This document shows, in pieces, positions 2,934 through 14,298 of a stretch of DNA of 23,762 nucleotides. The notes beneath the pieces were generated by a model. That model did not search any database and had not been told where the DNA came from. It was given only the letters and a program-made list of their open reading frames with translations. Made by a program: the position numbers and the translations under genes. The stretch is from Nitrospinota bacterium (GTDB lineage Bacteria; UBA8248): contig JASLZZ010000092.1 of assembly GCA_030754595.1 (NCBI GenBank), positions 1 to 23,762 on the forward strand, read 5' to 3'. Position 1 is the first letter of the stretch. Every line of letters starts with the position of its first letter.

Positions 2934-3869
2934 TCAGGCCAATACCGCCTTGGGCAGCATGGCGTGCACCCCCTTCACCCCGTTGACGATCTGGGTCACG
3001 TGAAGGTCCACGGCGAGGCTGCACAGCGTATAGGCGTCATCGCGGCTCATCCCCCTCGCCTCGCCCAGAAAATCAATCGTCTCTCTCAAAGCCATCTTCG
3101 CCGCGTTGTCGATCAAGGGGTCAAAACCCATCAGGATATGATGGGTCCCGGTTTCCGCCCGGGGGTGAGTGAGCTTCATATCCTTTCGAAGGCGAAGCTC
3201 CACCGTACCCGAAAGGGCGGTCTCGAGGGCCGAGGTGCAAGACTCTCCGTCGCCCTGACAACCGTGCCCGTCGCCGATGGAAAACATCGCGCCCTCGTTG
3301 AACACCGGAAAATACACGGTCGCCCCGGGCCCGAGCTCCTTGTTATCGAGGTTGCCCCCCCAAAAACCCGGCGGCGCCGAAGCGACTTGTCCCATCGCGG
3401 GTGGCGGGGCGACGCCGAAGTTTCCGAAAAACGGATCGAGGGGCACCTTTACGCCCGCGCCCCAGTCCGCCGTGCCCGCCGCATCGTCGATCTCCACGAC
3501 GACGGAGTGATGATAGGGAAAATCCTCGGGCAGACCGCCCCGGAGAGGCCGGAAAACATTCACCCCCCAGTCGTAACGTGGCCGGGCGTCGATGAAGCGC
3601 ACTTCGAGTACGTCTCCGGGCCGCGCTCCCTCGACGGCGACCGGGCCGATGAGCATGTGCCCCCCCGCGCCCTTCACGCAGGTCTCGATAATCGCGAGGA
3701 GCTCCTTCGAGACGCGGGAGCGGACCTTCTCCATGGCGTCCATGAACCCCGACTCGGTGTGGACTTGTAGGCGATCGCCCGAGGCAACGGTGAGGATCGG
3801 AGCCAGCGCGGCGTCGTAGTAGCCCCAGTGTACGGTCCCGGGCGATGCGATGAGCTCATGAATTACCAA
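2934..3869 (-). CDS. Acetamidase/formamidase (FmdA/AmdA) family protein, copy 1
   Basis: Motifs TVHWGYYD, GHMLIGPVAVEGARPGDVLEV, GGNLDNKEL and GDGHGCQGDGE. TTG start at 3869 behind AAAGGA, aligned with the start of the paralog. Confidence 0.92.
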   Translation of the reverse strand: MVIHELIASPGTVHWGYYDAALAPILTVASGDRLQVHTESGFMDAMEKVRSRVSKELLAIIETCVKGAGGHMLIGPVAVEGARPGDVLEVRFIDARPRYDWGVNVFRPLRGGLPEDFPYHHSVVVEIDDAAGTADWGAGVKVPLDPFFGNFGVAPPPAMGQVASAPPGFWGGNLDNKELGPGATVYFPVFNEGAMFSIGDGHGCQGDGESCTSALETALSGTVELRLRKDMKLTHPRAETGTHHILMGFDPLIDNAAKMALRETIDFLGEARGMSRDDAYTLCSLAVDLHVTQIVNGVKGVHAMLPKAVLA

Positions 3870-3891
3870 TCCGGGCGTCCTTTCCGGTCCG

Positions 3892-4827
3892 CTACTCGAA
3901 CAGCGACTTGGGCACCATGGCGTGGACACCCTTATAGCCGTTCACGATCTGGGTGACGTGAAGGTCCACGGCGAGGCTGCAAAGCGAGTATGCGTCGTCG
4001 CGGCTCATCCCCCTCAACTCGCCCAGGAAATCGATGGTCTCCCTCAAGGCCATCTTCGCCGAGTTGTCGAGAATGGGGTCGAATCCCCCGAGGATATAGT
4101 GGGTAGGCGTCTCCGCTCGGGGCACCTTGAGCGACATGTCCTTGCGGACGATCAACTCGAACGTGCCGTGCAGGCCCATTTCGATGCCGTTGATGTTCGC
4201 CTCGCCGTCGCCCTGGCAGCCGTGGCCGTCGCCCACCGAAAAAAGCGCGCCTTCGTTAAAGATGGGGATATAGACGGTCGCCCCCGCCGTGAACTCCTTG
4301 TTGTCGAAATTGCCTCCCCACTCGCCCGGAGGGGCGCTCGACACCCGGCCCATCGCCGGAGGCGGGGCGACGCCGAAATTCCCGAAAAACGGGGCAAGCG
4401 GTACTTTCACCCCGGCCCCCCAGTCGCCCGTTCCCGCCTCGGCGTCCACGTTCACGACGACCACCCGCAAATAGGGAAAATCCTCGGGCAGCCCGCCCGC
4501 CAACGGGCGAAAACCGTTATAGCCCCAGTCGTAGCGGGGCTGAATGTCCTTGATTCGGACCTCGAGCACATCGCCGGGCCGGGCGCCCTCGATGGCCACC
4601 GGGCCGGTCATGATGTGGGCGCCCTCCCCTTTTTTCACGGTGGAGAAGATATCGCGGACCGCCTTCGAGGCCCGGTCACCCAACTCATCGAGCAGATCGG
4701 CCCGGCCCGATTCGGTGTGGACGATGAGGGTATCGCCCGAGGCGATAGTCATCACGGGCTCGCCCGCGGGGTCGTAGTAGCCCCACTGGACAGTTTCAGG
4801 AGTGGCGGTCAGTTCGTGCGTGGCCAT
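3892..4827 (-). CDS. Acetamidase/formamidase (FmdA/AmdA) family protein, copy 2
   Basis: Same motifs (HIMTGPVAIEGARPGD, GGNFDNKE, GDGHGCQGDGE). ATG 4827 (MATHEL) behind AAGGGG; the ORF-track N-terminal extension is probably not real. Confidence 0.92.
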   Translation of the reverse strand: MATHELTATPETVQWGYYDPAGEPVMTIASGDTLIVHTESGRADLLDELGDRASKAVRDIFSTVKKGEGAHIMTGPVAIEGARPGDVLEVRIKDIQPRYDWGYNGFRPLAGGLPEDFPYLRVVVVNVDAEAGTGDWGAGVKVPLAPFFGNFGVAPPPAMGRVSSAPPGEWGGNFDNKEFTAGATVYIPIFNEGALFSVGDGHGCQGDGEANINGIEMGLHGTFELIVRKDMSLKVPRAETPTHYILGGFDPILDNSAKMALRETIDFLGELRGMSRDDAYSLCSLAVDLHVTQIVNGYKGVHAMVPKSLFE

Positions 4828-5078
4828 GGCTGGACCCCTTTTCGAGAATGCGTCGAGTCTTCGTGAGTATCTTAGTAAAATACCCCGCCCCGACCCCGGA
4901 GGCCGCCCCGGTCCCGGGGGCCGCCGCTCGCCGGAGAGCTTTTCTTGTCTATTACTAGACAGGGAGTGCCGACTTTCGCCGGAAACAGATTGGACTCTAT
5001 CATCCACCCCCAGTCTCTACCAACCACCCCCGAAGAGGTCAAAATATCGGCGATTCGCCCCCTTTTACCCCAAAACCG

Positions 5079-6014: not shown

Positions 6015-7373
6015 ATGATGAAAGCACGAATTCAACACTTTTTACCGGTGCTCGCGGTTATAGTGCTGGCCGCCGCGATGGGCGGGTGCGCCGAGTACGG
6101 ATTCAACACCTCGATCAGCTCCGCCGCCGCAAAGTCTCTGAAAGAATCCATTCAAAAGGAATTCGACCTCATGGTCCAGGACTTCGACGCCCTGGACGCA
6201 AAGGGCGAAGCAGAACTCTGCACCCCCCTCCGTTTCGCGGTGGCCCGGTTCGCCGTTTACCAGGCTATCGAGGAGGGAAGAAAAACCGGTATGGCGCAGA
6301 TGACCCGCTTCATCACGCGGGCGCGGCGCGCGCTGACCTCCACCGGCGAAAAACTGAAATCCCGAAAATGCGTGGACAGCGACGGCGACGGCCTGACCGA
6401 TCTGGCCGAGGTCCGCCGCTACAAGACGAATCCGAACAACGCCGACACCGACGCGGACGGCCTCGCCGACGGCCTGGAGGTTCGCCGCCACCGCACAAAT
6501 CCTCTTAACTTCGACACCGACGGCGACCTGCTGAGCGACGGGGAAGAAGCGATCTACTTCAAGGTGAGCCCGAACCACCCCGACAGCGATCGGGACGGCT
6601 ACACGGACGGCTTCGAGGTCACCCGCGGAACCGACCCGGGCGATCAGTGCTCGCGGCCTGCCCGGGGGCCCAGGGCGCCCGGCCCCTGGGCGAAATGCAA
6701 GCTTCAAAAAGAATTTGACCTCGTGGTCCGGGACTTTGACGCCCTGGACGGAAAGGGCGAACTCGAACTCTGCGCCCCCCTCCGCTTCGCGGTGGCCCGG
6801 TTCGCCGTTTACCAGGCCATCGAGGAGGGGAGAAAGTCCGGGATGGAGCAGATGACCAGGTTCATCCTGCAGGCGCGGCGCGCGCTGACCGCCGCCCGCG
6901 AAAAGCTGAAGTCCCGAAAATGCACGGACAGCGACGGCGACGGCCTGACCGATCTGGCCGAGGTCCGCCTCTACAAGACGAATCCGAACAACGCCGATAC
7001 CGACGCGGACGGCCTCGCCGACGGCCTGGAGGTTCGCCGCCACCGCACCAACCCTCTTAACTTCGACACCGACGGCGATCTTCTGAGCGACGGGGAAGAA
7101 GCGATCTACTTCAAGGTGAGCCCGAAACACCCCGACAGCGATCGGGACGGCTACACGGACGGCTTCGAGGTTACCCGCGGCACCGACCCGGGCGATCAAT
7201 GCTCGCGTCCCGTCCGGGGGCCCAGGGCGCCCGGCCCCTGGGCGAAATGCAAGCGGAGCCTGACGGGAAAGAGATATCGCCGGCGAAGGCGGGCGGTGCG
7301 GCGCCCTGTCCGCCGGGAGGGAGAGAACCCCCTCATCAACGAGAGCATCACACACAACCCCCTGAATCCCTGA
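6015..7373 (+). CDS. Predicted lipoprotein with two 184-aa tandem modules, each a helical domain plus bacterial TSP3-like Ca-binding repeats
   Basis: Basic N-terminus, hydrophobic stretch and a MGGC lipobox-like site. Repeats of DSDGDGLTD..E...TNP..DTD.DGL.DG.E; Arg-rich C-terminal tail. Confidence 0.8.
   Translation: MMKARIQHFLPVLAVIVLAAAMGGCAEYGFNTSISSAAAKSLKESIQKEFDLMVQDFDALDAKGEAELCTPLRFAVARFAVYQAIEEGRKTGMAQMTRFITRARRALTSTGEKLKSRKCVDSDGDGLTDLAEVRRYKTNPNNADTDADGLADGLEVRRHRTNPLNFDTDGDLLSDGEEAIYFKVSPNHPDSDRDGYTDGFEVTRGTDPGDQCSRPARGPRAPGPWAKCKLQKEFDLVVRDFDALDGKGELELCAPLRFAVARFAVYQAIEEGRKSGMEQMTRFILQARRALTAAREKLKSRKCTDSDGDGLTDLAEVRLYKTNPNNADTDADGLADGLEVRRHRTNPLNFDTDGDLLSDGEEAIYFKVSPKHPDSDRDGYTDGFEVTRGTDPGDQCSRPVRGPRAPGPWAKCKRSLTGKRYRRRRRAVRRPVRREGENPLINESITHNPLNP
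6153..7253 (+). repeat. Intragenic tandem duplication with a 552-bp period
   Basis: 6153-6701 and 6705-7253 both encode QKEFDL...GPWAKCK with very similar DNA. Confidence 0.95.
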
Positions 7374-9124: not shown

Positions 9125-9203
9125 TTATATTGCCTCCCGACAAAATTTCCGGCCGCGCCGACCCTCTTACAGGAGAGTCGCTGGCGAACCGATCCACTTG
9201 ATT

Positions 9204-9250
9204 CTTAAATTCCAGACAACTTAATTTCAGAACAACTTAACTCCAGACAA
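9204..9250. repeat. Three imperfect 15-16 bp direct repeats upstream of ilvD
   Basis: cttaaattccagacaa, cttaatttcagaacaa and cttaactccagacaa in an AT-rich intergenic patch. Confidence 0.7.
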
Positions 9251-9279
9251 GAGGGCTCGGCGGGCGCCGCCCTTCCCAT

Positions 9280-9726
9280 TTATTTTTTGTCCAGATAATC
9301 CTGAAGAAATCCGGCCAGCGGCGTGCTCCGCCAGTCGAAACCGATTTCCCGCGCGGCCCGTTCGGTCTCATCGGCCGACATGCCGCTCTCCTCCGAAAGG
9401 TGCGCTAGCGAGCAAACCCCGGCCCGCCCTCCGCCTTTTCAGTGGACAAAGACCGAACCGTCGGCCTTGCCCTCCTGAATCGCCTTGCCGACACCGGCCA
9501 AGAGTTTATCGGTAAAATTCTTGAGCCCGGCCGGAATGTGAACATACTTCATACCGAGCTTTTCGGCCTCCGCCGCCGCCCGGTCGATGGGGAGCTCGGG
9601 CTGGTCTTCGCCCGGCAACCGGAGGTTGATAACCGTCTTCACCCCCCGCTCGGCCATTCCCCTGAGATCTTCCGGGGTGGGCTGTCCGCCGAAAAAAATA
9701 TCGTCCGAAGCTTGCTTGTAATCCAT
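9280..9726 (-). CDS. DUF442/Blh-like (PTP/rhodanese-type sulfurtransferase fold) protein, probable selenoprotein with Sec at codon 96
   Basis: ATG 9726 behind GAGGGGAG. GGQPT..DL, GVKTVINLR..GE and GMKYVHIP are typical of DUF442/Blh. VFVH-TGA(9441-9439)-KGGGRAG puts TGA at the Cys of the H-C-x-x-G-x-R loop. The frame continues 52 sense codons to TAA at 9282-9280. Confidence 0.85.
9396..9438 (-). promoter_or_regulatory. Candidate bacterial SECIS element
   Basis: Immediately 3' of the UGA: AAAGG...GGGCGGGC-CGGG-GUUUGCUC...CCUUU. The apical loop starts about 17 nt after the UGA and has G at position 2; the upper stem is rich in G.U pairs. Confidence 0.6.
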
Positions 9727-9761
9727 GAACTCTCCCCTCGGAATCACCCGAAGGCTCCCCG

Positions 9762-10604
9762 CTAGCCCCTTTGAATGATCTCCCTGTACCGCACGAGACG
9801 GCTGGAGCGTTCCTCGTCGCCCTCCCGATGATAGATTCCGATCAAGTTGTTGAGCATTCTCTCCACAATCCGCAGGTCCGGCGTCTCGTTTAAAAACCGC
9901 GGGTCGAAATGGTAACCCATCCCGCGCACGATATCGGTGCACTCCTCGGCGGAAACGACCTTTCCTCCGTCAAAGGGGTCGAGATAAACGGGCGTTCCGG
10001 GAACCTCGTACTTCAGGATGAAATGACCGGGCATCCCCACCCCGCGGAAAGGAAGGTCCATCCGCCTTCCGATCAGCATATAAACCGCCGCCAGCGAGAT
10101 CGGCATCCCCTCCCGGCGGTCGAGCACCCGGTTTAGATAGCAATTGTCCGGATCATAGTACTCCGTCCTCCCGCCCTTGAAGCCCAACTCTTCGTGAAGA
10201 TAATAGGCCGTGTGGCGGACGATCTCATCGGGGGCGCTCACGCCCTCCAGCCGGTAGCCAAGCTCCTTGGTCATCTGATCCAACTCGGCGACGCAACGGC
10301 CCAGATCCTCGAGCGGATAGCCGAACGAGGCGAGGAGAAAGACCCCTTCCTCGAGTTGAGGGCCGTCCGGTGCGGAGACCGCCCACTCCGAAAACGAGCG
10401 CTCAAGGCGCGAGTGATGAAAATCCACAAGGGCGGGCGGAGCGGATACCCTGCGGCCCTCGGTTCGCGTAAGCCGCTCCAGGATGCGCTCCAAATCCTCA
10501 TCGGCCATTGAGGCAATCTGCCGATCGAGTGCCTGGAAAGTGGCCTCCCGATCATCCTCCAGCAGCGTACAAATTGCATCGAGTTGCGTTTCGCTCAAAT
10601 TCAC
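9762..10604 (-). CDS. SirB1/transglutaminase-like domain protein
   Basis: YYDPDNCYLNRVLDRREGMPISL...GVGMPGHFIL, YLDPFDGG and RMLNNL. GTG start at 10604 behind GGGGAGAGG. Confidence 0.85.
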   Translation of the reverse strand: MNLSETQLDAICTLLEDDREATFQALDRQIASMADEDLERILERLTRTEGRRVSAPPALVDFHHSRLERSFSEWAVSAPDGPQLEEGVFLLASFGYPLEDLGRCVAELDQMTKELGYRLEGVSAPDEIVRHTAYYLHEELGFKGGRTEYYDPDNCYLNRVLDRREGMPISLAAVYMLIGRRMDLPFRGVGMPGHFILKYEVPGTPVYLDPFDGGKVVSAEECTDIVRGMGYHFDPRFLNETPDLRIVERMLNNLIGIYHREGDEERSSRLVRYREIIQRG

Positions 10605-10702
10605 GGCGCCTCTCCCCATTCCCGCCCGGGACAAGGAACATTCGGTAAAAAAACCTATCTCCCTATGCTATTCTCCCGCCGTGAATAGCTCAATCCCCCC
10701 CA

Positions 10703-12124
10703 TTAACCCCCTTTAGGGTCTTGGGCCGCCTCGGCCGCCCGAAATCCGCTCCGCACCGCCCCCTCGCAGGTCGCCGGGAGCCCGGTCGCGGTCCAGTCCC
10801 CGGCCAGAATCAACCCATCCACCGGGGTTTCCGCCGCCGTGCGGTGCGCCTGCTCCCCGGCCCCGTTCGCCCATGTGGCCGCCCTCTCCCGGACGACGAG
10901 AACCCGCCGCAGGCCGAAATCCGGCAGGAGCCTCCCCGCCGCCTCGCGGGCCGCCGATTCGATCTCGCTCCTCGGGGCCGAGGCGAGAGAATCCGCGCCG
11001 CCGCATAAAAAAGCGACCGGCGCATCAGGTTCTTTTTCCCCGGTCCTCAAGTCCCCGGCCTTCAAGCCCCCAGCTCCCGGGCGAAAGAGCCACTCCCACC
11101 GCTCGGCCACCAGGGCCTCATAGGCCGGGCCCGGGCAAGGATGATCGAGCCAAAGGTAGGCGGTTGCGATGGAAGCGGACCGGAGGCGGCCGAGATCGCG
11201 CCAGGGGCTTTTTCCCCCAAACGCCTCCGCCGGGAGGAGCCTGAGAAGAGCGGGCGGGGGGACGGCGGCGATCACCACAGACGCTTCGATCGACTCACCG
11301 CCCGAGAGAGTCACGCCGCGAACAGCGCCGCCCTCGATCCGAATCCTCCGGACGGGAGCGGCCATCTTCACCTCGCCTCCCGCCCGCCGGATCGCATCGA
11401 GGGCGCGATCCGCCCAAAAAGGCCCCAGCGCCTCCGCCGGCGCTCCCAGCGAAGCGCCCGCGAGCCCCGGCCCGAACGCTTCGCACATCACCCGGCGCAG
11501 CAGTTCACCGCTCCCCTCCCCGGCGGGCATGTTGAGCACCGCCCCCGAGAAAGGCTCCCAGAACCACTCGCGCTCTGAAGCGCCCTGTCCGAGACGGTCG
11601 AGCATTTGCTCAACCGTCTCACCCGCATTTTTCGATTCAGCGGCGGGCGGCCCCTCCTTTAGCACGCGTCGGAGACCCCGGGCGATCGATAAGCGCGCGG
11701 CGAGGCGGGGGCCGCGCCAGCGAAGAAGCGCGAGCAGCGAGGCCGGAGCGCCCCCCCGGGCGGGAAACGAGAGCCGCTCGTTTCGCACTCCGCCCCGGGC
11801 CGCTCCATCGGCCAGCCGGTAGGTGAGATCGAGCGAGGGCTCAAAGCGAAGAGAGGCCGAGGCGCCGATTCGGCCGAGAAATTCACGGAGGGCGGGATTC
11901 GCCTTCATGAAAAGGTGAGGTCCCCAGTCCAACTCGCGTCCGGACCGGGGGTCGGGAAAACTTCTGGCCCGGCCGCCGGGCGCCTTGGCCGCTTCGAGCA
12001 GGAGAACCGGCCGGCCGGCGTCGGCCAGCGTGAGCGCCGCCGAGGCTCCGGCGAAACCTGCCCCGATGACGATGACGGGCGCCTCCCCCCTGTGCGAGGA
12101 GCCCGGGTTCAAGATGCCGCTCAC
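10703..12124 (-). CDS. hpnE: Hydroxysqualene dehydroxylase HpnE (FAD-dependent)
   Basis: GAGFAG, GGRARSF, LDWGPH, ERAAT and LAGDWTATGLPATCEGAVRSG. Its GTG start overlaps the TGA of the hpnCD fusion (GTGA). Confidence 0.88.
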   Translation of the reverse strand: MSGILNPGSSHRGEAPVIVIGAGFAGASAALTLADAGRPVLLLEAAKAPGGRARSFPDPRSGRELDWGPHLFMKANPALREFLGRIGASASLRFEPSLDLTYRLADGAARGGVRNERLSFPARGGAPASLLALLRWRGPRLAARLSIARGLRRVLKEGPPAAESKNAGETVEQMLDRLGQGASEREWFWEPFSGAVLNMPAGEGSGELLRRVMCEAFGPGLAGASLGAPAEALGPFWADRALDAIRRAGGEVKMAAPVRRIRIEGGAVRGVTLSGGESIEASVVIAAVPPPALLRLLPAEAFGGKSPWRDLGRLRSASIATAYLWLDHPCPGPAYEALVAERWEWLFRPGAGGLKAGDLRTGEKEPDAPVAFLCGGADSLASAPRSEIESAAREAAGRLLPDFGLRRVLVVRERAATWANGAGEQAHRTAAETPVDGLILAGDWTATGLPATCEGAVRSGFRAAEAAQDPKGG

Positions 12125-14298
12125 CTTCCGATCAGGCAGAGAAGAGCTTCGCGGAGCTTCGCCCCTTTCGAAAGAGAGGCTTTCCAGCCCGGCCCCGGAA
12201 AGTCGGCCGCCACGATTCTCTCCAGAACCCTGCGGTAGACGCGGCCCATGAAACGAGCCGGGAACAATCGCCTGCGGCTCCTGCCGGGGATGAGTGCGTC
12301 CGCTTTTTGGAAAAACGCCTCGGCCCGCTCCGCCTCGAACCTCAATAGCGCGACCAACGCCTCGCTTCGCTCTCCCTTGAGGATGGATTCCTCAGACACC
12401 CCGAACCGGTTCAAATCCTCGAGCGGCAGATAAATCCGGTTGTCCTCGGCGTCCACCCATAAATCGCGCAGGATGTTCGTCAACTGAAGAGCGAGGCCCA
12501 GCGTCCGGCCATATTCGATGCCTGCCGGAGAATTTTCCCCGAACACTTTCAGGCAGGCCAACCCGACGGCGGAGGCGACTTTGTAGCAATACTCCCTGAG
12601 CTCATCGAACGTACGGTAGCGGTTCTGGTCCAGATCCATCGCCACCCCCCGGCAGACATCAATCAGATCGCCGGTCGAGACGCCGTAGGATTCGACGGCT
12701 GTTCTCAGTTCGCGGAGGACCGGATGATGGTGATCGCGCCCGGCGAGATTGGCCACCGCTTCCTCCCACCTGTTCAGCTGCCGCCGCTTTTCCTCCCGGT
12801 CGCCCGGGGTGTCGGCGATGTCGTCCACGGCGCGGCAGAATCCATAAATCGCCGAGAGGGCGCGGCGGCGAGCGGGAGGCAGCGACAAAAACGCGACATA
12901 AAAACTCGACCGGCTCGACCGGACAAACCACCGGCAATAATTCCAGTCCCCCCGGGCGGCCGCATCGCCGTCGACACGGCGTCCGAGGAAACCCGCCGGA
13001 AAAAACGCGGCGAGAACGCAGGCCGCCTTGTCGCGGCGATTCAGTCTGGGAGATCCTTTCAACACGTCGTAGTCCGCTCGCTCGACCGACTCCAAGGCGG
13101 CGGCTCCTCCCCGAAATATCGCCCGAATCTCCCGCCCCAGGGGGCCTTTCATCGATTCGATCAAAGGAAGCCCCTCGGCGAAGAGAGCGCGCGTCCGATT
13201 GATCTGAAAAGCCATCAACGCCCGGAGCGATGCCCCCGCGTTCTCGCCCGCGAGTTCACTCTCGGCGACTCCGAACGCCTCGAGTTCCGCCCGGGGGAGA
13301 TAGATCCTGCCGCGAAGAAAATCCTCTTTAACGTCCTGTAGGTGATTGGCGATTTGGAGGGCGGTGCAGATCGCGTCGGAGGCCCGTATCTCATCCTCAC
13401 CCCGTACACCGTGAAGCAGAAGGATGATGCGGCCCACGGGGTTTGCCGAAAGCCGGCAATAGCCAAGCAGATCGGCGTATTCCGGATAGCAGCGCACAGT
13501 CACGTCCTGTCGGAAGGCGGCGATCAGATCGCGGAAAGGCTGAAGGGGCAGATCGTGGGCGCGAATCGTATCGCCCAGGGCGATAAAAACGCTTCCCTCC
13601 CCGCGCCCCTCGCCCGCGGCTTCGAGCCGGCGCTCCCAGTCATCAAGGCGGGTCAGGCGTTCCTCCTCCGTACCCGGGCCGGGGTCCGAATCCGAGCCGG
13701 GAAGGTCGGCGAAATCATCGGCGCACCGCGCGAAGGCATAAACCGCCGCCACATGCCGCCGAACCTTCGCGGAAAGCATCCGAGAGGCGACGGGAAAATT
13801 CTCGTAGTGCGCCGCGGCCATGCGCGCGCATTCGCGGTAGGCCGCCTCGATATCACCGGAAGAGGCGCCCGTCCGGGCTTCCCACGGCTTCGCCGGGACG
13901 CCCTCCTTGAGCATTTCGATCAGCGGGGCGTCGGCGGGGAGGAATTCAAACTTCTCTAAATCACCGGGAAGCGCCCATTCATGGGCAGCGACACCCCGGT
14001 TTTTCGGCTCCCCCTCGGACCATGAACACTCGTAGAAGCGAAGGTTCACGTTCCGGTCCGGATAGGAATGGCTGACCGACCATTCCATCCGCCCCACCTC
14101 GATCCCGATATCGAGCTCTTCCCTAATTTCACGGACGAGGGCGCCCTCGGGGGATTCGCCCTCCTCGACCTTGCCGCCCGGAAATTCCCACTTGCCCGGA
14201 AGGTGGGCTCCCTCCGGCCGGCGGCAGATCAGGACGCGCCCCTCGTTTCGGATGATTCCGGCGACGACGTTAATGCTGGATTGGGATTCGGTTACCAT
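12121..14298 (-). CDS. Fusion of a MutT-like Nudix hydrolase, HpnC and HpnD (squalene/hopanoid precursor synthesis)
   Basis: N-terminal WEFPGGKVEEGESPEGALVREIREEL (Nudix box). Middle HYENFPVAS, YAFARCADDFAD and CTALQIANHLQD (HpnC). C-terminal SSFY, YGFCRAVDDIAD and GLALQLTNILRD (HpnD). One uninterrupted frame. Confidence 0.9.
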   Translation of the reverse strand: MVTESQSSINVVAGIIRNEGRVLICRRPEGAHLPGKWEFPGGKVEEGESPEGALVREIREELDIGIEVGRMEWSVSHSYPDRNVNLRFYECSWSEGEPKNRGVAAHEWALPGDLEKFEFLPADAPLIEMLKEGVPAKPWEARTGASSGDIEAAYRECARMAAAHYENFPVASRMLSAKVRRHVAAVYAFARCADDFADLPGSDSDPGPGTEEERLTRLDDWERRLEAAGEGRGEGSVFIALGDTIRAHDLPLQPFRDLIAAFRQDVTVRCYPEYADLLGYCRLSANPVGRIILLLHGVRGEDEIRASDAICTALQIANHLQDVKEDFLRGRIYLPRAELEAFGVAESELAGENAGASLRALMAFQINRTRALFAEGLPLIESMKGPLGREIRAIFRGGAAALESVERADYDVLKGSPRLNRRDKAACVLAAFFPAGFLGRRVDGDAAARGDWNYCRWFVRSSRSSFYVAFLSLPPARRRALSAIYGFCRAVDDIADTPGDREEKRRQLNRWEEAVANLAGRDHHHPVLRELRTAVESYGVSTGDLIDVCRGVAMDLDQNRYRTFDELREYCYKVASAVGLACLKVFGENSPAGIEYGRTLGLALQLTNILRDLWVDAEDNRIYLPLEDLNRFGVSEESILKGERSEALVALLRFEAERAEAFFQKADALIPGRSRRRLFPARFMGRVYRRVLERIVAADFPGPGWKASLSKGAKLREALLCLIGR

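Follow-up and report, generated by a model that had tools for sequence, protein, structure and literature searches.

Results

A DUF442 gene interrupted by an in-frame TGA

The window analyzed here, a 23,762-nucleotide (nt) stretch of DNA from a Nitrospinota bacterium (contig JASLZZ010000092.1 of assembly GCA_030754595.1, forward strand), carries on its minus strand a gene for a small protein of the DUF442 family, with an in-frame TGA at the codon where other members of the family have their catalytic cysteine. We refer to it as the Sec-DUF442 gene, as the TGA very probably specifies selenocysteine (Sec). It lies between a SirB1-like gene upstream and ilvD downstream (Table 1). Under translation table 11 the frame halts at ...DGSVFVH-TGA, after residue 95; with TGA translated as Sec (U) it resumes as KGGGRAGVCSL... 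and runs on through 52 further codons to ...QDYLDKK-TAA, giving a product with the active-site loop H95-U96-K-G-G-G-R101-A-G. An earlier note on this DNA, made from the letters alone, had described this halt at VFVH and the continuation to a protein of 148 residues, and translation reproduced both exactly. The note had further proposed that (i) Sec replaces the catalytic Cys of a DUF442/Blh-like protein; (ii) a hairpin follows the TGA directly and (iii) the family may be undescribed, and it had named shared TGAs among homologs, Sec genes in the genome, misread letters and selection beyond the TGA as the points on which its proposal would turn.

The TGA is shared by homologs

When the read-through protein was used as the query in a six-frame search of 61 related genomes, 52 rows were returned, 47 of them full-length, and every one of the 47 contained exactly one in-frame TGA. 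Alignment placed this TGA at codon 96 in all of these homologs, which encode proteins of 148-155 residues that are 41-95% identical to the window protein. The motif [H/Y]-U-x4-R-A-G was likewise present in 47/47, with His at the first position in 46 and Tyr in one. A profile search over 51 genomes of the phylum gave 60 rows, and the in-frame TGA was found in all 57 that were full-length (in two of these one extra stop is counted, presumably the regular stop codon, at which the match ends); the TGA is thus common to every full-length homolog in the phylum, well outside what chance would give. The 57 matches were spread over 35 of the 42 genomes of one family. Two genera of that family were without a match in the same search (0/4 and 0/2 genomes), as were the nine genomes from three other families. 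In one genus, 22 of 23 genomes held two paralogs.

Cys-type proteins identify the residue that the TGA replaces. Among 13 Cys-type relatives with 28-40% identity, H95 and C96 are invariant, and column 96 of 154 full-length DUF442 domains holds Cys in 145, Ser in seven and Asp in two. Set beside the TGA in 57/57 homologs from the phylum, this bears out the proposal that Sec stands in for the catalytic Cys. The Sec forms fall into a clade of their own (49 tips, support 99), with the signature G-R-A-G-[IV]-C-S-L plus W132. One Cys form, P0045 (162 residues; listed with P0194, both being metagenome proteins), nests inside this clade, its exact placement there being weakly supported. Since P0045 derives from metagenome gene calls its Cys codon is a true one, and the protein may be a Sec-to-Cys reversion. 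A divergent protein of 94 residues that ends in ...FVH (P0104) may be the Sec form of another lineage; a search for its DNA in metagenome contigs gave four loci, and the two that were translated proved to be distant Cys forms and are uninformative on P0104.

A search of 185,579 species genomes with the peptide pattern G-R-A-G-[IV]-C-S-L-x-H yielded 49 look-alike loci, all of them in metagenome-assembled genomes (MAGs) labeled Nitrospinota, Nitrospinaceae, Candidatus Tectomicrobia or simply 'bacterium'. Public protein collections have the nearest relatives only in a form truncated where the Sec codon stands, with lengths of 72-102 residues and most often 95; one such fragment bears the name 'uncharacterized protein (TIGR01244 family)'.

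The reading frame and RNA downstream of the TGA

The frame beyond the TGA is open for 52-59 codons in all 47 aligned copies, compared to 6/47 and 13/47 for the other two frames. Mean column entropy at the three codon positions was 0.84/0.77/1.25 after the TGA (residues 108-146) and 0.80/0.60/1.34 before it, and seven residues (R101, A102, G103, C105, S106, L107 and W132) are invariant in the downstream part. Frame and codon periodicity are thus kept past the TGA, the region for which the earlier note had asked for signs of selection.

The same region holds a SECIS-like (selenocysteine insertion sequence) hairpin. Its conserved stem of 7 base pairs carries an 8-nt G-rich loop and begins 10 nt 3' of the UGA, somewhat further from it than had been described. 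The RNAalifold consensus over 38 distinct 60-nt stretches has the stem GGCGRGC / GCUCGCU and the 8-nt loop CGGGNUNU; all seven pairs form in 38/38 distinct sequences, the sole variation being G-U to A-U (17 cases). Synonymous codons are almost frozen here: across homologs, codons 100-106 read GGG in 44/44, GCC in 47/47, GGG in 47/47, ATT in 36/37, TGC in 47/47 and TCG in 47/47, with only CGG or CGA used for Arg101. Third-position entropy in these codons is 0.23, compared to 1.25-1.34 elsewhere, while the equally invariant residues G13, P16, G28, G58, G90 and L107 are encoded by four codons each. Such frozen synonymous sites are the signature of a functional RNA overlapping a coding sequence. 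The G residues of the loop lie 21-23 nt from the U of the UGA, and in other genes of the same genome G-containing apical loops are found at 20-21 nt (selD) and 22-23 nt (an OsmC-like gene). In the fdhF element of E. coli the spacing is about 11 nt, and G and U are needed in the apical loop.

Selenocysteine machinery and sequence controls

The genome to which the window belongs (3.55 Mb in 138 contigs, 96.9% complete) contains all of the Sec genes on which the proposal depended. Above their cut-offs were selB (364 bits) and selA (552 bits), which share a contig, selD (345 bits), which carries an in-frame TGA of its own, and tRNA-Sec (73.6 bits), which ARAGORN also called as tRNA-SeC with the anticodon TCA. 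Other genes with in-frame TGAs are two OsmC-like genes over the cut-off, a third OsmC-like match below it and one SelW-like gene (Table 1). No Sec-type formate dehydrogenase scored over the cut-off in this genome, and the Sec trait is kept there by other genes. TGA also serves as an ordinary stop: it ends 4 of the 10 neighboring Pfam-supported open reading frames (ORFs) in the window and 10/47 of the homologs themselves, so that TGA is not reassigned genome-wide and the code is standard.

Public sequencing runs gave no indication that the TGA is a misread TGC or TGT. The stretch was present, in full or in part, in 20 runs belonging to 11 studies, and for 16 DNA runs the share of sampled words recovered was half or more. 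One DNA run, which carries no flag as a possible source, covered 9307-10000 with zero differences and spans the TGA. An RNA-library contig from two runs of one sample (9274-9493, zero differences) also bridges the TGA; a contig from a second study covers 9291-9462 but extends only 21 nt to one side of it. The RNA-library contigs run from about 6-9 nt beyond the stop codon to 21-52 nt upstream of the TGA and so cover the 3' part of the gene only, with word depths of 44 and 19.8 in one sample; this limited cover may be due to carried-over DNA, to the limits of the assembly or to an RNA fragment that is stable, and the uncovered parts carry no weight either way. As RNA libraries can contain DNA, the contigs show presence and are no proof of transcription. 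The gene is real, conserved and expressed-looking, and it is annotated as a 95-residue fragment in all of the public gene calls seen. On each point that the earlier note had named as decisive, the outcome speaks for its proposal.

Protein family, structural model and active site

The translated product matched PF04273 (BLH_phosphatase/DUF442) with 35.2 bits over residues 3-104, compared to a cut-off of 26.1. In Pfam and NCBIfam scans it showed no metallo-beta-lactamase (MBL) domain and no match to selenoprotein-specific NCBIfam models, and the rhodanese domain PF00581 gave no match at E up to 0.1. An AlphaFold2 model built from the 47-row alignment folds the protein confidently over its full length of 148 residues, three helices coming after the Sec (predicted local distance difference test, pLDDT, 94.4; predicted template modeling score, pTM, 0.89). 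In this model Sec96 follows the central strand (residues 91-95), the loop H95-U96-x4-R101-A-G leads into a helix (100-114), and the Sec would occupy the place of the catalytic Cys in Cys-type relatives. The nearest structures found by Foldseek were the DUF442 proteins 3gxh (Shewanella) and 2f46 (Neisseria), with tyrosine phosphatases of the archaeal and dual-specificity kinds next in rank, and a profile search of PDB sequences agreed (2f46, E = 1e-9).

The active site has features of DUF442 rather than of classical protein tyrosine phosphatases (PTPs) and dual-specificity phosphatases (DSPs). An Arg stands at +5 from the Sec in 47/47 homologs, as in the C-x4-R loop of DUF442, and the C-x5-R spacing of classical PTPs and DSPs was not found. 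In residues 64-73 there is, by sequence and without superposition, no conserved general acid; the best column is 66% Asp/Glu, with Pro in 15/47. Cys105 is invariant in 47/47 Sec forms and is kept in P0045, compared to 8/154 for Cys in DUF442 domains in general, where column 105 is mostly a hydrophobic helix position (Phe 49, Leu 38, Met 30). Its TGC codon straddles the loop-stem junction of the hairpin. Cys105 may act as a resolving cysteine, or the RNA may be what fixes it.

With E up to 0.001, 7552 relatives were returned when 1.84 billion representatives were searched with the profile, and 11 with E up to 1e-30. The closest Cys forms include fusions to two rhodanese domains (P0048), to MBL and rhodanese domains (P0051) and to a Blh-type dioxygenase domain (P0094, which scores 435 bits to NF040641). 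In all three proteins the DUF442 domain lies at the C-terminus, the reverse of the domain order in Blh.

Genomic neighborhood

Neighbors were counted at 50 loci by targeted blastp of named neighbors. At 28 of these, including the window, a SirB1-like gene lies upstream on the same strand, its end usually about 24-36 nt before the start codon; a flavin adenine dinucleotide (FAD) oxidase gene is inserted at two of the 28 and the neighbor is cut by a contig end at three. Downstream of these loci is ilvD, in either orientation. In the window the SirB1 model NF008188 scored 41 bits on the upstream neighbor, below its cut-off. A consensus scan of the window found no terminator-like site between the SirB1-like and Sec-DUF442 genes, and the two are probably co-transcribed.

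The second paralog accounts for 21/50 loci and has a different setting, and the one remaining locus shows neither arrangement. In the second setting the Sec-DUF442 gene lies directly 3' of a gene for an OsmC-like selenoprotein, with MBL/ODP-like and methylmalonyl-CoA-epimerase-like genes nearby. The two selenoprotein genes are in tandem, approximately 25 nt apart, and after its own TGA the OsmC-like ORF matches positions 58-144 of NF041052 with 86 bits (at 2682-2975 of locus L079, with 20 further loci).

Other genes of the window are mentioned for completeness. At 10703-14298 (minus strand) a 725-residue ORF with a NUDIX domain and two squalene/phytoene-synthase domains is followed by a flavin amine oxidase; the region resembles a squalene-synthesis cluster of the HpnC/D/E type, in which the NUDIX fusion is unusual. 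At 6015-7373 (plus strand) there is a 452-residue protein with bacterial TSP3 repeats that also matches a calcium-binding domain weakly; at L091 and L111, two distant loci, TSP3-repeat ORFs again lie on the far side of ilvD. At 2934-5007 (minus strand) two ORFs of 331 and 371 residues lie side by side, and both match the acetamidase/formamidase family over its C-terminal part.

Table 1. Features of the Sec-DUF442 locus in the window, and other genes with in-frame TGAs in the same genome (positions of the latter given as contig:position)
Feature	Position	Strand	Basis or detail
Sec-type DUF442 coding sequence, complete, 148 residues	9280..9726	-	ATG 9726-9724, TAA 9282-9280; translation with TGA=U
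UGA codon 96, predicted to be read as Sec, replacing the catalytic Cys of the H-C-x4-R loop	9439..9441	-	homolog alignment
SECIS-like hairpin, codons 100-107, stem GGCGGGC / GCUCGCU, loop CGGGGUUU	9407..9428	-	RNAalifold consensus
Candidate Shine-Dalgarno-like purine-rich stretch GAGGGGAG, 5 nt 5' of the ATG	9732..9739	-	by reading the sequence
Transglut_core2/SirB1-like gene, upstream, 35 nt from the ATG	9762..10634	-	PF13369, 157 bits
Terminator-like stem with T-rich tail, between the Sec-DUF442 gene and ilvD	9149..9161	-	consensus scan, 4 sites compared to 2.0 expected; weak
selD	C16:24543-25505		own genome, in-frame TGA
OsmC-like	C45:9969-10394		own genome, in-frame TGA
OsmC-like	C131:5518-5910		own genome, in-frame TGA
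OsmC-like	C50:28151-28324		own genome, in-frame TGA
SelW-like	C45:6523-6747		own genome, in-frame TGA

Discussion

We are confident, on the strength of the sequence comparisons, that the Sec-DUF442 gene encodes a genuine selenoprotein. A plausible scenario for its expression, which follows the standard bacterial mechanism, is that the hairpin 10 nt after UGA-96 recruits SelB with Sec-tRNA(Sec), such that Sec is inserted and translation does not stop. The product would be a 148-residue protein with the tyrosine-phosphatase fold, of the DUF442 subtype. As for what this protein does, we favor sulfane-sulfur transfer, to which, by analogy with Cys-type relatives, we would give about even odds. The selenolate would take up a sulfane sulfur as an Se-S adduct, the donor being thiosulfate, a persulfide or a polysulfide, and the sulfur of this adduct would then be passed to a thiol acceptor. 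For the reading as a whole, that is, selenoprotein identity, mechanism and sulfur-transferase function taken jointly, our estimate is a probability of roughly 0.55.

Our preference for sulfur transfer is based on the following: (i) there is precedent in the DUF442 domain of Xylella Blh, for which thiosulfate:cyanide sulfur-transferase activity was assayed (PMC5823870); (ii) the closest Cys forms include fusions to rhodanese and dioxygenase domains; (iii) the loop is of the C-x4-R type and (iv) there is no conserved general acid.

A number of our results weigh against this reading. With regard to function, the genes next to the Sec-DUF442 gene in the window (SirB1-like, ilvD and those for squalene synthesis) are silent on sulfur, and the second paralog adjoins an OsmC-like selenoprotein gene, a setting suggestive of peroxide or redox chemistry. 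Among DUF442 proteins of solved structure, 2f46 is reportedly a phosphatase. The window protein matches PF22741 (32.4 bits compared to a cut-off of 27) and other PTP-type Pfam models, and it falls short of the cut-offs of the only two NCBIfam models that responded: TIGR01244 scored 46.2 bits with a cut-off of 85.85, and the Blh model NF040641 scored 58.3 bits with a cut-off of 625, over profile positions 2-129 of 423 only. These last scores indicate that the protein is a DUF442 relative and not a Blh ortholog, so that the DUF442 half of the label given in the earlier note stands, on the PF04273 score and the fold match, and the Blh half does not. With regard to the RNA, a two-sided change is seen in none of the seven pairs of the hairpin, and its covariation score does not exceed that of controls. 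Against Rfam, 9200-9800 gave only two chance-level matches with E up to 10, and no SECIS family. Folded alone, the window sequence (76 nt including the UGA) reaches -29.8 kcal/mol with z = -0.51, which was matched by 58/200 shuffles. The support for the hairpin is thus one of invariance, which is explained in part by the conserved peptide G-R-A-G-[IV]-C-S-L. Finally, the ratio of nonsynonymous to synonymous substitution rates (dN/dS) in the post-TGA region is only moderately low: the pairwise median is 0.36 over 39 codons, compared to 0.235 before the TGA, and values below 0.5 were obtained in 239 of 410 usable pairs.

Of the alternatives, the one that survives best retains the selenoprotein and gives it a redox function, in which Sec96 would be oxidized by peroxide, arsenate or an oxidized partner (for example the OsmC-like selenoprotein) and resolved by Cys105 or an external thiol. 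This we consider unlikely, even though it would fit well with the 21/50 loci in which the gene directly follows that of the OsmC-like selenoprotein and with a Cys105 that is invariant in the Sec forms and in P0045 and rare in other DUF442 domains. It would also be in keeping with the catalogs, as most cataloged selenoproteins are redox proteins according to a 2026 review (PMC13188914). However, column 105 is usually a hydrophobic helix position, the RNA alone could have fixed Cys105 through a TGC codon that crosses the loop-stem junction, no UxxC or CxxU motif is present and the window copy has no OsmC neighbor.

A second alternative, which seems to us improbable, is that the selenoprotein acts as a phosphatase. 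Sec96 would then attack a phosphate ester (phosphotyrosine, a phosphorylated sugar or inositol) and form a seleno-phosphate intermediate. The fold would allow for this, as the model aligns to Tk-PTP, SsoPTP and VHR with TM scores of about 0.7-0.77; in addition to the PTP-type Pfam matches noted above, conservation extends to H95 and R101 in the phosphate-binding loop, and PDB entries 2f46 and 3gxh both bear the title 'putative phosphatase'. Nevertheless, the C-x4-R loop is one residue short of the C-x5-R of true phosphatases, the loop at 64-73, where a general acid is expected, has no conserved acidic residue by sequence, and the nearest Cys relatives are fused to rhodanese or sulfur-dioxygenase domains and not to kinase or signaling domains.

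That there is no selenoprotein here at all, the TGA being either a real stop in a decaying gene or an assembly error that leaves a 95-residue fragment, or else being reassigned genome-wide, we regard as very improbable: the public gene calls seen do all end at residue 95 and the hairpin has neither covariation support nor an Rfam match, but a stop would need to have persisted at the catalytic codon of an otherwise intact fold in 57/57 copies, ahead of 52-59 open, periodic codons, independent DNA and contigs from RNA libraries show the same letters, TGA ends four of ten neighboring ORFs and 10/47 homologs, the Sec machinery of the genome is complete, and a 95-residue product would lack the catalytic loop and the three helices of the model.

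If the Sec-DUF442 protein is a selenoprotein, it would be one that the existing catalogs do not hold. Table 1 of a prokaryotic selenoproteome review from May 2026 names 119 families or subfamilies, with no DUF442, PF04273 or phosphatase-fold family among them, and the terms phosphatase, DUF442, PF04273, TIGR01244 and tyrosine are all absent from its main text (PMC13188914). BSepDB has 111 families, and one supplementary text of 3,999,962 characters, possibly incomplete, contains no mention of phosphatase, PF04273, DUF442, TIGR01244 or 'sulfur transferase' (PMC13326102). No match for the family was found in the main text of the deep-Sep paper. In the full-text literature covered, nothing joined selenoproteins with DUF442, and articles combining SECIS with tyrosine or dual-specificity phosphatases were unrelated as judged by title and the start of the abstract. 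A search for new selenoprotein families named since 2023 added no further paper to those already compared. What the 2008 Global Ocean Sampling (GOS) paper has as a 'phosphatase' is a fusion of a PP2C domain with a peroxiredoxin. Within the literature searched, which leaves most subscription journals outside, the Sec-DUF442 family is therefore absent from print, and the suspicion in the earlier note that it is undescribed gains support from these searches. What would be new to the catalogs is the family and the fold as a setting for selenium chemistry; the mechanism would be an ordinary Sec-for-Cys replacement with a downstream SECIS.

Taking these considerations further, we tentatively suggest that Sec-type DUF442 proteins make up an uncataloged family, that they are the first selenoenzymes from nature to have the tyrosine-phosphatase fold, that their two conserved paralogs in a marine, sponge and groundwater lineage are wired, respectively, to a SirB1-like protein and an OsmC-like selenoprotein, and that together these form a selenium relay for sulfane sulfur or for peroxide-derived oxidizing equivalents. 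If this is true, the list of natural selenoproteins would grow by one family and also by one fold, the PTP fold carrying a C-x4-R loop. The natural Sec/Cys pair would offer a way of asking what is gained by selenium in sulfur-transfer or phosphatase-type chemistry. A systematic annotation error would be exposed, in that the gene calls seen end at residue 95 and the active site is lost. The selenoproteome of the Nitrospinota/Tectomicrobia-labeled lineage would also be enlarged; MAGs with these labels are already among the most selenoprotein-rich bacteria in BSepDB (PMC13326102). Lastly, the tight pairing with a SirB1-like protein would provide a testable lead on that poorly understood family.

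Comparison with known systems places the Sec-DUF442 protein closest to the Cys-type DUF442 proteins, namely the Blh domain of Xylella and Agrobacterium, NMA1982 of Neisseria (2f46) and 3gxh of Shewanella. These have the same fold and the same H-C-x4-R loop and provide the best PDB matches, but the Sec-DUF442 protein has Sec for Cys, stands alone without a dioxygenase domain and belongs to a clade of its own. Classical PTPs and DSPs (Tk-PTP, 5z5a; SsoPTP, 2dxp; VHR, 1vhr) have a like fold, with the nucleophile between the central strand and a helix; unlike these enzymes, with their C-x5-R loop, the Sec-DUF442 protein has an x4 loop, Sec and no conserved general acid. Of the two models for Sec-type arsenate reductases, TIGR00014 represents the glutaredoxin-coupled ArsC fold and not a phosphatase fold, and the Sec-DUF442 protein matched neither this model nor NF041106 at E up to 0.1. 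Nevertheless, the arsenate reductases listed in the review (TIGR00014 with UxxS; ArsC-like NF041106 with UxxC; PMC13188914) are likewise small, with a Sec nucleophile and an oxyanion substrate. The nearest cataloged functional analogs are the rhodanese-like selenoproteins (PF00581 forms 1-5, PMC13188914), which also have Sec for a nucleophilic Cys, a short Arg-containing loop and a presumed role in sulfur transfer. They differ in fold and family, and their motifs are UxxS, UxxG, CxU and UxxxxU, compared to H-U-x4-R in the Sec-DUF442 protein.

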